The notes beneath the pieces were generated by a model. That model was not told where the DNA came from. It ran no database searches and saw only the letters and a list, made by a program, of their open reading frames with translations. Below, in pieces: positions 6,018 to 45,310 of a stretch of DNA of 64,000 bases. This DNA is from an uncultured virus (IMG/VR IMGVR_UViG_3300037882_001470) (taxonomy: Duplodnaviria > Heunggongvirae > Uroviricota > Caudoviricetes). How positions within the stretch are numbered: position 1 is the stretch's first letter; each line of letters begins with the position of its first letter. A program made the translations under genes and the position numbers. The stretch lies in IMG/VR virus record IMGVR_UViG_3300037882_001470; one strand, given 5' to 3'.

Positions 6018-6506
6018 TTATTCATCGAAGTCTGATTGGCCCTGCGGAACTCCGCCGTAGTTTACTAATTCGAATACCTCAATCTCTGCCTCTAACGTCT
6101 TTAGTTGGCCCTCAGTCACCTGAATCGGGTTGTTACCAAAACGGCGCTGCATAGCAATTGGTAACTCACCGAAGGCGACGCGCGCCGTAGGTAGTCCAAA
6201 CCACTCACCCGGAACCGATAACTTTCCAGACATGAAATCAAGTATCGCCGTCATTCGCTGTTTTCCGTCGATCACGGCTATTTCTTCTCCCCAACCAGCC
6301 GCGAACCTATCGTTAACGATCAATGACGGGATTGGGATTCCCCGCAGAATCGACTTTATCAGGTTGCGCTGACGAACCGAGCCCCATACATCCCCACGCT
6401 GATATGGCGGATTGAGCAGTAGATATCGCTCCTCTTGCCAGTATTTTATTACGTCTACGGGGCGCGACGTGTTGGCCAACCGTAGACGCTCTATTGCTTT
6501 AATCAT
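6018..6506 (-). CDS. Stand-alone DUF262 (ParB-like / GmrS N-terminal) protein
   Basis: PPYQRGDVW, LIKSILRGIPIP and VIDGKQRMTAI motifs. Confidence 0.9.
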   Translation of the reverse strand: MIKAIERLRLANTSRPVDVIKYWQEERYLLLNPPYQRGDVWGSVRQRNLIKSILRGIPIPSLIVNDRFAAGWGEEIAVIDGKQRMTAILDFMSGKLSVPGEWFGLPTARVAFGELPIAMQRRFGNNPIQVTEGQLKTLEAEIEVFELVNYGGVPQGQSDFDE

Positions 6507-15363: not shown

Positions 15364-15377
15364 TTGATTGTAATGGG

Positions 15378-15450
15378 TTGGCTCGGCGGGACTCGAACCC
15401 GCAACCAATGGATTATGAGTCCACTGCTCTCACCGTTGAGCTACAAGCCA
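15378..15450 (-). tRNA. tRNA with CAT anticodon, most like tRNA-Ile2 (Met not excluded)
   Basis: TGGCTTG TA GCTC AACGGTGA GAGC A GTGGA CTCATAA TCCAT TGGTT GCGGG TTCGAGT CCCGC CGAGCCA A forms a full cloverleaf. Confidence 0.95.
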
Positions 15451-17775: not shown

Positions 17776-18099
17776 TCATTGGTTAAAACTCGTCGATGCG
17801 ACGGCGCAGAGCCGGGCGAGAATCCAACCTTGGTCGTTTGGTTCGAATCGCGCCATTACGATGTGATCGTCCCCAAGAAGGTGTGGGTCGAGCGGCCCAC
17901 CTACCCACGGGTGTCTTAGCAACAATAGCTTCTGCCCGCTAAACGTTGTACATCCTTCGTAATGAACCAACAGTATGGTTTTACCTTCGAGTTGCTCTGC
18001 GTGCAATACGGTGTGATTCGCAGGGTCTGGATTTGGCGGTAGTGGAGGCTGGTTAGTCCCTCGCCCGGTTTCAGAAAACTTGAACAGACTTATTCCCAT
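17776..18099 (-). CDS. Phage hypothetical protein
   Basis: NPDP...VHYEGCTTFSG.K...LDPH...ARFEP..GW motif. Confidence 0.8.
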   Translation of the reverse strand: MGISLFKFSETGRGTNQPPLPPNPDPANHTVLHAEQLEGKTILLVHYEGCTTFSGQKLLLLRHPWVGGPLDPHLLGDDHIVMARFEPNDQGWILARLCAVASTSFNQ

Positions 18100-18527
18100 A
18101 ATAATTTCGCACCGTAATACATCATCGTCAGATGAATAGTGTTGTCGGCTATCGCGTAAACGAGTACAGTAAACCCGCCACGCAGTGCGTGGTAATTAGC
18201 TCTATCGTATCCGTCCGGTATGTTATTTCTACCGTTATACATGAAGTCCTTTAATGTTCGGCTATCTATTAACGCGAGCCAACGATCTGCGAGCCCCCAG
18301 CGGTCAACCGGGAAGTGTGTGAGAAATACGAGTAAAGGCCACTGCCAGTTTTGTATACTCGGTAGCGTAGTTGCCGTTACTACGATGGTGTAAATAAGAC
18401 AGTGGACGAAACACACCCACGTATCGCCGCTTTTCTTATACGCCATCCACTTGTTTTGAAACAAGTAGTCCCCCATAAGATGCCCGAGGACTAACGTCGC
18501 GAAGAAATCATTGTTATTTATTCCCAT
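18090..18527 (-). CDS. DUF3307 membrane protein
   Basis: GHLMGDYLFQ, H..IY, THF.VD and ADNTIH motifs. Confidence 0.85.
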   Translation of the reverse strand: MGINNNDFFATLVLGHLMGDYLFQNKWMAYKKSGDTWVCFVHCLIYTIVVTATTLPSIQNWQWPLLVFLTHFPVDRWGLADRWLALIDSRTLKDFMYNGRNNIPDGYDRANYHALRGGFTVLVYAIADNTIHLTMMYYGAKLLWE

Positions 18528-34257: not shown

Positions 34258-34629
34258 CTACGTCAGGAAGTTGAATACGCACACCAGCCAGATGAACACG
34301 AGATGCCATGCTTGATCCACGAACAGCGGACCCGCAGGCCACCTGTCCGGGGGTGTCTGGCGATAGAACATCATCCACTTGCGGTGAAGCTCGTAACGGT
34401 CCTGAAGCCAATGCTGGATGAGGATTAATGCTGTAGGTGCAGCACCAATCCCGGCAATGGCTGCGATAGGTGTCACGAACATGGTGTAAATTCCTACATG
34501 CGCACTGCAAGTATACGAACACTTGTTCTTATCTTGGTGCGAGTCGTTTTGAAACAGGAAATCTCCTGCGAGGTGCGCTATAAGGATCATGACGAACGCG
34601 GAGTTCGCCTCAATAAGTTGTTGAGTCAT
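34258..34629 (-). CDS. DUF3307 membrane protein (second copy)
   Basis: AHLAGDFLFQ, HV.IY, QHWLQD and DQAWH motifs. Confidence 0.85.
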   Translation of the reverse strand: MTQQLIEANSAFVMILIAHLAGDFLFQNDSHQDKNKCSYTCSAHVGIYTMFVTPIAAIAGIGAAPTALILIQHWLQDRYELHRKWMMFYRQTPPDRWPAGPLFVDQAWHLVFIWLVCVFNFLT

Positions 34630-41316: not shown

Positions 41317-41850
41317 TCATAGAATCGACGGGACAAGAGCGTAGTAGCGCTGAAGAAACGATTCCCGAGCGTTCTCTGGAGCCCATGGCTCGATGATAGT
41401 GACATTCGGCTCCACGCCGCGCAGGCAATACCACTCTTCGTCAGGTCCGTTTAACAGGTCCCGTCGCTCTGTAGCCAACATCACCATGTCCGCGTGCTTT
41501 ACGCAATCTGGTAGCTTTTCGTCCAACCCGAATTGATTCAGCACAACTTTCGTAACACGACGTTCGATATCCTTGTAGTCCGGGAGCAGGGCTTTCAGTG
41601 GACGTGGGATGTCCCCGATGAATGCCTCTGGGGCGTCGTGCATCAACGCCGCAAATGCGAACTCTTCAGGGACAATATAGCTCGCCAGAACAGAGTGCTG
41701 TGCGACGGAGTAGAACGTCTTACAGTGACCGCCGAAACGGCAGATGTTTGCGAGCGCGTGTGCGATGTCGTAGATCGTAAACTTGGAGTTTTGTGGTTCG
41801 ATAAAGTCGAAATACGTTCCTCCGGCAATTAAGATACTTGGATGTTCCAT
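41317..41850 (-). CDS. HD-domain phosphohydrolase (YfdR/YfbR-like 5'-deoxynucleotidase)
   Basis: DIAHAL..ICRF.GH...YSVAQHS...LMHDAPEAFIGDIP.P.K...VK.AD. Confidence 0.92.
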   Translation of the reverse strand: MEHPSILIAGGTYFDFIEPQNSKFTIYDIAHALANICRFGGHCKTFYSVAQHSVLASYIVPEEFAFAALMHDAPEAFIGDIPRPLKALLPDYKDIERRVTKVVLNQFGLDEKLPDCVKHADMVMLATERRDLLNGPDEEWYCLRGVEPNVTIIEPWAPENARESFLQRYYALVPSIL

Positions 41851-42210
41851 TGTGTTATTTGTCTCCTCTTTCATCGCTGATACGAAGTAACGCGCGACGC
41901 TTTGCTGCGAGGATACGTCGTTTCATTTTGAGTCCCATACGAGGTGACGGCTCAATAGTTTCAGGGTCTATTTCGCGTGAGATCTTATCGGACATCTTCC
42001 GTGCCTGCCCTTGAGCGTTCAGGTAGTAGAAACTGCCTCTACCACATTTAGGACAAGTCGCAGTTTGTCCGCAAGTCCAACCAGGGTTGTCGCCCCATAC
42101 GTATTCACTGGTTGTCAGAACATACCCGCACTTGGACTTCGAGCACTGTACAAGTTCTACCAACTCCTTCGGGGGTTCAGTATTTTCTTTAGTTTCCATA
42201 CTATCGCCAA

Positions 42211-42582
42211 TCATTGCACTAAACCTTTCGCTAAAAGAAACGCGATAAGTTGGTCCAGAGGTTCGGAGTCCATTACCGCGTATACCGCGGTTGCGTGTAA
42301 GGAGTATACCTCGAACGTATACCCCAGCTGGGACGCCAAATGGCATAAGAATGCGCGTCTTTCGTCCGGTGTCAGTAACTTGCGGGCCTCCGACATTGCG
42401 TCACGAGACGTGTCGTATTTCGGGATCGGGAGTTGGTAATGATGATGGTCACTTGGCCTGTCTGGGCGAAGTCCGATCACGCCATCAACTATCGTCCACC
42501 CGGCCACCACCGCGCACATGATACGCATCTGCGTTGGGTCTTTACGTAATTCGCTAATACTTGGTAGTTCGAGTTCAATCAT
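42211..42582 (-). CDS. Phage ABA-sandwich-like family member
   Basis: A.VAGW...PKYDTSRDAM.EA...L. Confidence 0.6.
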   Translation of the reverse strand: MIELELPSISELRKDPTQMRIMCAVVAGWTIVDGVIGLRPDRPSDHHHYQLPIPKYDTSRDAMSEARKLLTPDERRAFLCHLASQLGYTFEVYSLHATAVYAVMDSEPLDQLIAFLLAKGLVQ

Positions 42583-43199
42583 TTGATAAATAGTTGTTTC
42601 AGCGTGCGTTTCAGCGCCGCTTTTGACCGGGGTATTACCTCCACCGTGTCTCCACATTCAATTCGCCATGATGTAATGTCCGTATGAATACCCCAGATGT
42701 TTCCCGCAGGTCCCGCTAACGAACGTTGCAGACTGATTAGTAATCTCCCCGGAAAATTCGGACACGACAATACTGGTTTGATCATTTCCATTTCGCGAGA
42801 GAATCGCTTCATCGTTTCCGGGTAGAATGTCGGGAACCCGTCACCGCTGTAGCAGCCTTCTGCATTGCGCCATAACGCGTGGGCTCCTTTACGGTCGGGG
42901 GTAATACACTGCGGATGCGAACCCGCGTTTTTCCGTACCCAGTAGATACCGATCTGTTCCCAGTCATCAGGCTTACCGTCGAACGAGTTATGAAGCATGC
43001 TGCTCGGGCGGTATCCGCGTCTGCGCGCCCATGCATTTTCTTCCGCGGTTGGTAACACCGGCTGTTCCAGCAGCTTCACGAATTCGTTGAAGACCGGCGT
43101 CGGCTTCGTAACATCCTTCAACGTCACCGGCTTAAATAGTTGAGACTTCGGATACGTGCTTCGCTCCAAAGTTAATTGTGTTCCTTGATTGTAGCTCAT
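42579..43199 (-). CDS. Hypothetical protein
   Basis: 206-aa ORF. Confidence 0.8.
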   Translation of the reverse strand: MSYNQGTQLTLERSTYPKSQLFKPVTLKDVTKPTPVFNEFVKLLEQPVLPTAEENAWARRRGYRPSSMLHNSFDGKPDDWEQIGIYWVRKNAGSHPQCITPDRKGAHALWRNAEGCYSGDGFPTFYPETMKRFSREMEMIKPVLSCPNFPGRLLISLQRSLAGPAGNIWGIHTDITSWRIECGDTVEVIPRSKAALKRTLKQLFIK

Positions 43200-43296
43200 C
43201 GAAATAATGGTAGCTGCATACCGACTTTATGTAATAGCACTGCGGCGATCGTTATCAACACGCCCCATACGACTATGGCGAGTAGTGTGGTAATCT

Positions 43297-44013
43297 TCAT
43301 TCGTTTGGGACGGATAGTGCGCAGTTAGCCGTTTTGGACCACTCACTTTTCGCGCCGATGATCATGCACCCGCGAGGGTTTAGTCCACCGACATCAGTTT
43401 GGTCCGGTTTTACTTCATGCCAGTATTCGCCAACAAACCGGACGATGCCGGAGCGACCCTTATACACTCCGCCGATGATTAAAACGCCGTCACCGACGGC
43501 TAACAAGGGCGCGGCAGCTAACGCGCCTGTCGCGTTCTCCGTGCTTGGCACGTCGTTCGTGGCGCGTTGCTGCGCTGCGCAGTTCGCACACATTATTGAA
43601 ACGCATCCCGGTATGGCTTGCGCCGTCGACTTCTCAACGCCTCGCCATTTCGTATTTATACGAAAGCCTGCTTTATCGTAAGCATGCCAGAGCTGGTGTA
43701 TACATGATCCCCTTGATTTTAACATGTCTGTAATATGTTTTGGGTGTCCACACTTTAAGCACTTGTCTTCACCGTTCTGTCCGTATGGTTTAACCGTCGG
43801 AGTCGGCATCTCTTCGTCCTTGTTTTCTGGTTCTACCGCAGGTTCGACATCCGGGTCTGTAGGAAGTTTGAGCCGCCTCGTTGGGTGTAGCTCGGCGTTC
43901 AATTGCTCGATCGTTATCCGCGCGGCAATCAACTCCCGTTGAACTTCATCGTAGCATTCCGCCAGCGCTTCAACACTCTTTATCGCCTGTTCTTTCGCGT
44001 CTCGGAACGTCAT
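43297..44013 (-). CDS. Chimeric protein: coiled-coil, Cys motifs and cassette-derived KOW/SH3-like domain
   Basis: CLKC and CANC motifs; the KOW-like VGDGVLIIGGVYKGRSGIV lies within the 258-bp cassette. Confidence 0.8.
   Translation of the reverse strand: MTFRDAKEQAIKSVEALAECYDEVQRELIAARITIEQLNAELHPTRRLKLPTDPDVEPAVEPENKDEEMPTPTVKPYGQNGEDKCLKCGHPKHITDMLKSRGSCIHQLWHAYDKAGFRINTKWRGVEKSTAQAIPGCVSIMCANCAAQQRATNDVPSTENATGALAAAPLLAVGDGVLIIGGVYKGRSGIVRFVGEYWHEVKPDQTDVGGLNPRGCMIIGAKSEWSKTANCALSVPNE
43325..43582 (+). mobile_element. Integron-type gene cassette (258 bp), coding antisense to its attC
   Basis: Begins G|TTAGCC (43324-43330), the exact complement of its attC R'' GGCTAAC, and ends at G|TT (43582). 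Confidence 0.75.
43498..43588 (+). other. attC-like recombination site
   Basis: R'' GGCTAAC - 6 nt - L'' GCG(G)CAGC (T) AACGCGCC - 33-nt loop - GGCGCGTT L' GCTGCGC - 6 nt - R' GTTCGCA, with two extrahelical bases. Confidence 0.8.
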
Positions 44014-45310
44014 GTGGTTTCCGTTACATCATTATCTTCCTGCCTCTTCATCGGCGTTGGGTATGATATTAGTAATTTAAGACGTGTTCCAAGCTTCTGT
44101 ATCTCATGCGTCAATTCTGGGTCTGCGCACTCCATCAAAGACCATTGCATGATTTCTTTGATAGTTTTACTGGAGGCGTCCTTAAAGTGACACATCATAA
44201 TAGTCCGTTCATCTATCGTATGATCATACGTACCGCGAACCCCAATGCCAGTATCACCGCAGCGCATCCGAGCAACACCCCTAGCAGAGTGTTTCCGAAC
44301 ATCATGGTGCAATCTTCCAAGACACCCTCTACTTCCACTCCAGACTCCGGCGTATACTCTTTCTCAATTAACTCCATCGTTCGCTCGAAATACCGCGTCA
44401 GATCGCTTTCATACATACGTTTCACAATCTCTCGTAGTTCGTCGCACTCATCCGCGGTGAATACCTTTTCTCGTGTTACGAAATGAATAATGTCTGCCGG
44501 GTCACCCTCTAGGTGATAAGCCAGCCCGGCTTCGAACATCGCGTCAGCCCATTGCCCACCGTTCTCGTATGTGGGGATTCTCGATTTACCCGCGTTTGGC
44601 GTTACGGGTATTACCTTAGTTGTTGTGTCTTTGTTCATTTGTTCTGTTACATTGTGTTCCGAAGTGTCGACCACTGAATCTCGCGTTTAAGATACGCGAG
44701 AATCGCATACGACAACGTAGGCGTAGGTGTTTCGAAGATGCTGGAGAGCATCACGAACTCGTGCACTTCCTCATCCGGGATGTTCCGTCTGGAGAACATG
44801 TCGCGCGCGGTCGCCGGCTGCCTCCCTAGTAGGCTCGTGATGACCGTCGCCATTTTGTATTCTGGTTTACTCATTCTGTGTCGGGATACACTTTTCGAAT
44901 CTCGAACCCCCGTAAAACTTCAGGTATTGCTCAGGAGTTGAATACTTCACGGCTTCTTGAACTAAACTGTATGGCACGTCCGCTTCGATGTAACGGCCTG
45001 CTTGGATGCCCGTAGGAACTCCCATTTCGCGTTCTATTTCCCATCCTGTGCCATTGCGTTCTGACGAATAGCATCCGTAGAAGTTTACGTGGGTTTTACA
45101 TGGGCTACCGAACGCGACGACACGTTTACCGTTCGTGTAGAACCCGTATTCTCCATCTTTGGAGATGTAGACGTCATAACCGTAAGACAATAACGCCTTC
45201 GCGATTTTCTGGATGAGTTCCTTTTTCATGAGTAGGACCTACACAACATACAGACGGTGAATACGACTACTGCGGCGACGATGACGTCCCATATGAATTG
45301 TGGCATACCG

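Follow-up and report, generated by a model that had tools for sequence, protein, structure and literature searches.

The DNA analysed here, referred to below as the window, is a stretch of 64,000 nucleotides (nt) from an uncultured virus assigned to the Caudoviricetes (IMG/VR record IMGVR_UViG_3300037882_001470). It is the part covered here of a contig with a recorded length of 131,819 bp, of which about 68 kb lie outside the window. On its minus strand, an open reading frame (ORF) at 43297..44013 encodes a chimeric phage protein of 238 amino acids (aa). Residues 1-144 and 231-238 belong to a recipient gene with a coiled-coil-like N-terminus and CxxC motifs, and residues 145-230 are derived from an inserted cassette of 258 bp that ends in an attC site, the recombination site of integrons. 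The first-pass annotation, made from the letters alone, had read the locus in this way. All its statements on the sequence itself, concerning the gene, the repeats, the hairpin and the length of 258 bp, were borne out, and they were weighed here against bacterial integrons, related phages and protein relatives.

The attC site spans 91 nt of the plus strand at 43498..43588. In order, it comprises an R'' box (GGCTAAC, 43498-43504), a spacer (43505-43510), an L'' arm (43511-43527), a 33-nt loop (43528-43560), an L' arm (43561-43575), a second spacer (43576-43581) and an R' box (43582-43588), which reads GTTCGCA as integrated and GTTAGCC in the circular form of the cassette. Both spacers are 6 nt long, and the folds placed both bulges on the R''-L'' arm, at G43514 and T43519 (or A43521 in the register of the family described below). 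The hairpin thus has the inner stem with extrahelical bases, the unpaired spacers and the variable loop of an attC. When the circle junction was restored by script, R'' and R' paired at 7/7 positions versus 5/7 in the integrated state. The consensus of the R'' box is RYYYAAC. The two outer boxes are inverted relative to each other, and each is one position off its consensus, which for the R' box is GTTRRRY as quoted in PMC9892861. The same variant boxes recur in arrays beside integron integrase genes (intI), the R' box GTTAGCC at locus L035 and the R'' box GGCTAAC at locus L022. The energy of the hairpin was not exceptional against shuffled sequences (z of -1.28 and -0.46), and an Rfam search over 43000-44100 gave just two sub-threshold chance matches.

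When the two-arm hairpin pattern was searched in 185,579 species genomes, a single match was obtained, on contig JANMLS010000252.1 of a Verrucomicrobiaceae metagenome-assembled genome (MAG; genome G001, contig C213, locus L004). The MAG copy is 95% identical to the window over the 75 nt at 43502-43576 (BLAST E value of 1.3e-27 in that genome), and the homology ends at 43576. Its outer boxes are GCCGAAC and GTTAGGC, with the GTT at the same 5-nt distance past the right arm. About 0.5 kb from the MAG attC, in divergent orientation, lies a 339-aa ORF that scored 370 bits on the integron integrase model TIGR02249 (cut-off 265) and matched PF00589 and PF13495. A 60-aa forward ORF is located between the integrase and the hairpin, and a lipoprotein-like forward ORF follows the hairpin. 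This order is that of a first cassette followed by a second one, with the hairpin as the first attC. The hairpin is the only stretch common to the MAG and to the 20 kb around the site; the setting typical of an attC, beside intI or in a cassette array, is that of the MAG copy and not of the window.

An attC model independent of the site, R1, was built from the array-side DNA of intI in G001 and G090 and in 11 further integrons from 10 further genomes. Candidates came from a crude finder, which required the pattern NNNNAAC...GTTNNNN, boxes complementary at 6/7 positions or more and one dominant hairpin; finder sites without xxCTAAC, xxCGAAC, xxCCAAC or xxAGAAC boxes were excluded, as was one duplicate. 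The training set consisted of 29 distinct attCs beside intI from 11 genomes, which align to a clear family consensus, and both copies of the hairpin under study were left out. R1 is a covariance model with a hand-written 17-pair structure, and its E values are rough. R1 was run over the 64 kb on both strands with filters off, a kind of check that the first-pass annotation had suggested. The top match was 43499-43587 on the plus strand, at full length, with 19.1 bits and a rough E value of 0.014; the runners-up had E values of 2.4, 3.4, 5.9 and 8.5, and no second attC was found on either strand of the window. As a positive control, the untrained MAG copy scored 38.7 bits (E of 2e-7), and one further untrained attC was recovered in G001, where three matches in all were found at E <= 1 in 44 kb. 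Aligned to R1, the window hairpin has its two bulged bases where the family attCs have theirs, with one T-T mismatch. An attC-like hairpin proposed weakly by the crude finder at 42978-43092 had no support from R1 and was rejected. Given this near-identity to an intI-adjacent attC and the top rank under a model built without it, 43498-43588 on the plus strand is, judged by its sequence, a genuine integron attC, and a complete one as first annotated.

R1 also fixed the orientation of the cassette. In 12 array loci, all 42 matches (42/42) lay on the strand expected from intI. Together with the plus-strand match in the window, this control indicated that the plus strand of the window is the top strand of the cassette and that the phage gene reads the cassette backwards, so that the antisense orientation claimed at the outset was confirmed.

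Integrons recur in the bacterial family that carries the MAG copy. An intI above the cut-off was detected in 47 of 151 Verrucomicrobiaceae genomes; G001 has three integron integrase genes (contigs C26, C134 and C213), and G017 has five integrase matches (contigs C5 and C7), four of them on one contig. Verrucomicrobiaceae look unusually rich in integrons. Partial hairpin matches of 24-41 nt were found in G090, G099 and G151, the one in G090 being located about 317 kb from the intI of that genome. As a separate observation on the 29 family attCs (A4; loci L030, L032, L035-L041, L043 and L045), 16/29 contain no stop when translated antisense in the frame where the crossover AAC encodes Asn, and this frame is continuous with the R''-end frame in 15/29; these are raw counts from GC-rich sequences.

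The 258-bp cassette occupies 43325..43582 on the plus strand. It runs from the TT that follows the G of the left G/TT (43324/43325, the slash marking the crossover) to the G of the right G/TT (43582/43583). A repeat search showed that two plus-strand copies of the 9-bp direct repeat TGCGCAGTT are separated by exactly 258 bp, the left one at 43318..43326 containing the left G/TT, and the right one at 43576..43584 containing the 3' spacer of the attC and the G/TT of the R' box. Owing to this repeat, the true joint may lie anywhere between 43317/43576 and 43326/43585. A perfect 9-bp inverted repeat is formed by GTTAGCCGT at 43324-43332 and ACGGCTAAC at 43496-43504, and no second copy of the unit occurs elsewhere in the window. 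In the 500-bp region, repeats of at least 8 nt form seven direct and seven inverted families, with those of 8-10 nt at background level, and the window holds 321 exact 9-mer pairs at a spacing of 100-1000 nt. With 9-mer pairs this common and a fold energy that is not significant, the repeats and the fold alone do not beat chance.

On the minus strand, the unit amounts to 86 open codons. This antisense frame is its only long open frame, and both its start and its stop lie outside the unit. At the crossover, cassette and recipient alike have AAC, which is read as Asn. Since the length is 86 codons, the antisense frame is open and AAC encodes Asn on both sides, the phage protein reads through the insert, and the original C-terminal tail of the recipient, CALSVPNE and the stop (43297..43323, minus strand), is still in frame downstream of it. 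By our own arithmetic, a matching frame and a length divisible by 3 would coincide by chance in about 1/9 of cases, and read-through alone is therefore no proof of selection. The usual content of a cassette, one promoterless sense ORF ending near or in the attC, is absent. With its only long frame in antisense and neither start nor stop inside, the unit represents an atypical "backward," open-ended cassette.

An empty allele, which the first-pass annotation had proposed to look for, was found in a related phage. Seven freshwater metagenome runs from five studies contain parts of the stretch, and four of them were compared in detail. Runs X1 and X2 carry the allele of the window at an identity of at least 99%. 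In run X3, 43317 is followed directly by 43576 in record 16, a contig of 348 bp at depth 4.1, so that 258 bp are skipped. The contig differs from 43217-43317 by 11 letters and from 43576-43698 by 7; at the joint, 9 letters fit both sides, and the shorter side measures 101 letters. This allele is the predicted empty sequence ...CANCALSVPNE, in a ~90%-identical phage from another freshwater metagenome, and the contig, running from 43576 to 43317 and onward, agrees with the translation in delimiting the recipient tail. These data indicated that the insertion is discrete and that the excision product had been predicted correctly: the unit has G/TT ends and is present or absent as a whole, as seen in the X3 contig and in the ends of homology among its protein relatives. 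A false assembly join through a 9-bp repeat can be argued against, as overlaps of about 30 bases should be needed; this word size is suggested by the 30-base overlaps between neighbouring records. By eye, the deduced empty site GTGCG-CAGTT-CGCAC (43316-43330 joined to 43585-43590) is a small palindrome with GTT in the loop.

The X3 relative differs from the window elsewhere in the region. Record 18, a contig that encodes P0002 (see below), keeps codons 1-91 of the gene; at 43741 it departs from the window and continues with 48 unrelated residues. Record 16 departs beyond 43698, into sequence with the tRNA T-arm-like GGTTCGAATCC. With these divergence points at 43698-43741, the gene has a second mosaic junction that is not connected with the cassette. 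In the neighbouring gene at 42579-43199, 113 nt at 42992-43106 are replaced by 116 other letters, and 559 extra letters are present between 44202 and 44216. Short contigs in X1, X2 and X3 match only the hairpin stretch at about 43502-43577 and have different flanks on both sides; the X2 hairpin variant carries a base that would abolish the T-T mismatch of the window hairpin.

In the protein, the attC is read antisense as a 25-residue linker from C145 to P169 (43507..43581, minus strand), ending in ...AAQQRATNDVPSTENATGALAAAP. The cassette body, bounded by GTTAGCCGT and ACGGCTAAC, follows as residues 170-230 (LLAVG...KTAN; 43324..43506, minus strand). When the C-terminal 97 residues were searched with phmmer against 1.84 billion representatives, eight proteins were returned at E <= 0.001. 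Four of them are real relatives: the 238-aa protein itself, P0003 (85 aa, 69% identity), P0004 (55 aa) and P0008 (145 aa). Short-stretch matches in long multi-hit proteins, among them the repeat protein P0006, account for the remaining four and were rejected. A search among shorter proteins added P0010 (88 aa, 80% identity) and P0011 (112 aa).

These relatives mark the limits of the cassette body. The closest of them, P0003 and P0010, are stand-alone ORFs. Their alignment with the window protein begins at LLAVG and ends at KTAN, at 69-80% identity (69-77% between P0003 and the window domain); past that Asn the three are unrelated. LLA is the R'' box in antisense, and the Asn codon of KTAN is the antisense of the left G/TT. 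P0011 contains the linker peptide AQQRATNDVPSTEDATGALADAHLF between quite different flanks in an unrelated ORF; its junction N-D-T-AQQ matches the antisense translation of the MAG attC, N-D-I-AQQ (frame 602-811 of L004), and the two differ upstream of the Asn. P0011 and the MAG attC thus split at another breakpoint on the crossover triplet. The positions at which these relatives part, on G/TT or Asn triplets, are those where a crossover by the integron integrase (IntI) is predicted to fall. Moreover, family attCs translated in antisense look similar to the N-terminal heads and C-terminal tails of these two ORFs, as in the P0003 head (VGCSVLLA versus VRCSALLD), the P0010 tail (NADLSDR versus NAPKLSDR) and the P0003 tail (NDSDQATASE versus NEKSSATAEG). 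From this resemblance, P0003 and P0010 would probably each have the start codon within their own attC and the stop within a neighbouring one. Translation and alignment of the relatives hence agree with the first-pass annotation that the unit is in frame and that its attC is translated as a linker.

The nature of the added domain is less clear. It had been described as KOW/SH3-like; a domain with relatives is indeed encoded, but the KOW label is weakly supported, all Pfam matches being below the cut-offs. PF00467 (KOW) matched 4/5 family members with a best E of 0.006, and PF23290 matched 3/5 with a best E of 6.4e-4, so that the domain appears KOW-like only weakly. An AlphaFold prediction from the 5-sequence domain alignment gave an unusable model (pLDDT of 37.8), and the best ESM Atlas scores, 0.86-0.89, provided leads only.

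The recipient gene has few relatives. With the 238-aa protein, Pfam gave nothing at E <= 1e-4, the sole matches being sub-threshold KOW ones (PF23291 at E of 0.13 and another at 0.66), no PHROG family was matched, and megablast and tblastn searches of 50,697 phage records with the gene found no match. A search of 5.8 billion proteins, limited to 130-417 aa, returned only the protein itself and P0002 (139 aa), which is 99% identical over residues 1-91; its C-terminus is unrelated, and nothing in the window encodes it. Neither the protein nor the hairpin gave anything real in scans of viral_contigs, and the same held for the two-arm pattern, the domain alignment and a linker pattern obtained by back-translation; the linker pattern found nothing in a JGI metagenome scan either. 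Three apparent relatives were rejected: L001, whose common word EYWHEVKP is a chance one, and the JGI metagenome matches L002 and L003 to the domain alignment, in which only the generic motif GGVYKGRSG is in common.

The surrounding DNA is a one-strand block of small genes, with 127 non-overlapping minus-strand ORFs of at least 70 aa, 10 of which have a Pfam match at E <= 1e-4. The clearest phage marker of the window is a T5-type deoxyribonucleoside 5'-monophosphate phosphatase at 41317-41874 on the minus strand (phrog_318, E of 4e-78; Pfam YfbR-like). One tRNA-Met lies at 15376-15450, and relatives of a 640-aa ORF were confined, among the phage records searched, to four large phages. This content fits a large virulent phage, of which the window would be an early or accessory region. 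The window also contains a short ORF with a GmrSD N-terminal domain and two DUF3307 paralogues, at 6018-6506, 18090-18527 and 34258-34629.

Taking these results together, we consider it probable that an integron cassette was excised by the IntI of a host, integrated at a GTT in a phage gene and read through in frame. The 258 bp would be one cassette of the Verrucomicrobiaceae attC family, consisting of the 91-nt attC and a short body whose sole long frame runs backward to cassette polarity and would encode a KOW-like domain of about 60 residues. The host integron integrase would excise the cassette as a circle, and the circle would integrate at the GTT located eight codons before the stop of a gene in a large T5-like freshwater phage, presumably while the phage infects an integron-bearing host. 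The resulting protein passes from recipient residues 1-144 through the 25-residue attC linker and the domain to its own last 8 residues, and the 9 bp common to circle and target may guide or stabilise strand exchange. While the attC, its polarity, the ends of the insert, the empty allele and the in-frame reading are shown here, the circular intermediate and its integration by IntI (attC x "attG") are inferred, as would be any function of the fusion. According to Loot et al. (bioRxiv 10.1101/2022.09.11.507474), IntI inserts cassettes at 5'-GWT-3' sites of the genome (attG), isolated cassettes (SALINs) are frequent in genomes, and attG inserts can be expressed and excised again. The features of a SALIN at an attG, a single attC with no nearby integrase and a GTT target, are found together within the 64 kb.

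Several results weigh against this reading. No intI was seen in the window by the first-pass annotation, and this is correct: PF00589 was matched by 0/127 window ORFs, in the 64 kb covered of the 131,819-bp contig. The score of the site under R1 is modest at 19.1 bits, with rough E values. By a crude longest-open-frame test, 30 cassettes of bacterial arrays comprised 19 forward ones, 1 backward and 10 ambiguous. The domain itself was found neither in G001 nor in the 151 genomes of the family, and P0008 carries a related domain directly behind a CxxC...CxxC motif, a layout in which a domain beside a zinc-ribbon-like motif may be native to some phage proteins. The empty allele is represented by one contig, at a depth of 4.1 and in one run, from a ~90%-identical phage, and the copy of the gene in that phage is rearranged elsewhere too. 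Finally, target and cassette are identical over 9 bp rather than over the GWT consensus, and the six extra bases would match by chance in about 1/4096 of cases by our own arithmetic.

The last point bears on how the cassette was joined to the gene. The six extra matching bases favour a homology-assisted join, and they coincide with the 3' spacer of the attC. Across the family this spacer is less conserved than any other part of the 3' half, and it differs among all hairpin copies seen. The 9-bp identity would either have guided an integrase-independent single crossover or have favoured this GTT among the roughly 4,000 GTT triplets that we estimate on both strands of a 132-kb genome. A real cassette might thus have been joined without IntI, through recombination of a circle or a piece of an array via the 9-bp TGCGCAGTT, by annealing or illegitimately, as in phage mosaicism; microhomology had already been named as an alternative in the first-pass annotation. 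The direct repeat flanking the insert and the mosaic state of the region, with the replacement at 42992-43106, the divergence at 43741 and the 559 extra letters at 44202-44216 in X3, speak for such a join, and Qi et al. (PMC9892861) raise the possibility that attCs enter phages when homologous or illegitimate recombination goes off target at GTTRRRY-like motifs. We nevertheless regard this route as unlikely, although it is the strongest of the alternatives. Breakpoints fall at G/TT or AAC triplets in three independent contexts, the circular form regains perfect R''/R' pairing, and among the 127 window ORFs no recombinase family was detected at E <= 1e-4, tyrosine recombinases included. A circle is the simplest donor with or without IntI at the joining step, and a circle itself implies excision by IntI.

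A transposon-like target-site duplication was also considered as the source of the direct repeats and was rejected, because both the conserved Asn codon of the domain and a GTT at the family spacing past the right arm would have to come, by coincidence, from the target GTT.

It could also be argued that domain and hairpin are ancestral in the phage gene, that the X3 allele is an in-frame slippage deletion, and that the hairpin family perhaps passed from phages into integrons. The X3 joint is just what would be left if short direct repeats had recombined with loss of the DNA between them, and the 321 9-mer pairs offer many such repeats; the similar layout of P0008, with its related domain behind the CxxC...CxxC motif, and the failure to find the domain in 151 bacterial genomes point the same way. 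The ends of such a deletion, however, coincide with limits of the foreign DNA that were defined independently, namely the TAN at which the protein relatives part and position 43576 at which the MAG homology ends. Furthermore, the search over 130-417 aa showed the gene to be without any other relative carrying the domain, and the hairpin belongs to a large attC family adjoining intI in at least 11 genomes. We hold this explanation to be improbable. A chance resemblance, with a GC-rich coding hairpin and fortuitous repeats in a native C-terminal domain, would agree with the non-significant fold energy, the empty Rfam result and the background level of 8-10 nt repeats, but its probability is negligible, as it is already refuted by the 95% identity to an attC beside intI, the top rank under R1 and the precise 258-bp empty allele, and the linker peptide recurs in the unrelated ORF P0011.

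In a wider reading, backward cassettes without start and stop could serve as portable protein modules, which the integrase of infected, integron-carrying cells would graft reversibly and in frame at GTT/Asn codons of phage (perhaps host) genes, with the attC as a flexible linker; this is a tentative idea, which we would sooner doubt than accept. P0003, P0010 and P0011 would then be other states of the same system, and there would be a general system that shuffles domains in addition to whole genes, rather than one tolerated insertion.

Integrons are known for moving whole genes, and cassette insertion outside integrons and the occurrence of attCs in phages have been shown only recently. The locus offers a natural case of a cassette read through inside a phage gene, with occupied and empty alleles in environmental populations; a recombination site has turned into a peptide linker, and an existing protein has gained a domain. 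Should this not be an isolated case, integron recombination would provide a route to domain shuffling and to direct exchange between the bacterial cassette pool and phages. A testable substrate is available: the 258-bp unit and its empty site are both defined, and one Verrucomicrobiaceae genome encodes a candidate cognate integrase. The pairing of attC and integrase points to the likely host group of the phage.

Among known systems, the closest parallel appears to be the SALIN or attG insertion. Compared with the insertions in bioRxiv 10.1101/2022.09.11.507474, the likeness lies in a single cassette with one attC, no nearby integrase and a GTT inside coding sequence. The differences are that the recipient here is a phage, that the insert, read through antisense and in frame, neither disrupts the gene nor delivers one of its own but adds a domain, and that 9 bp rather than 3 are common to target and cassette. 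With regard to phages, attCs have been reported in them, virulent ones included, and IntI1 recombines these sites (Qi, Rajabal, Ghaly, Tetu, Gillings 2023, PMC9892861). Those attCs and CALINs resemble the present site in being genuine recombination sites in phages, with GTTRRRY-like boundary motifs discussed; as described there, they occur as at least two attCs or as whole integrons between genes, whereas here one attC lies in an ORF and is translated. In section 3.4 of PMC9892861, no in-frame read-through of a cassette was found, and the literature searched, a thin basis, gave no cassette read in frame with an attC linker and a body that adds a domain.

Another kind of mobile DNA, of a different family, leads to a similar outcome. 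Rickettsia palindromic elements are hairpin-forming mobile sequences that lie in frame inside genes and are translated as a peptide insert; in contrast to the unit described here, they are not known to have an integron integrase, attC architecture or an extra domain. The sedentary chromosomal integrons of Verrucomicrobiaceae, for their part, share with the window the same attC family, with the boxes G[C/G]C[T/G]AAC and GTT[A/C]G[G/C]C, the left arm GCAGC[T/G]AAC and the bulge positions. They differ in that their arrays hold, by the crude frame test, mostly forward cassettes, none with a KOW-like body, whereas the cassette in the phage gene is read backward and encodes one.

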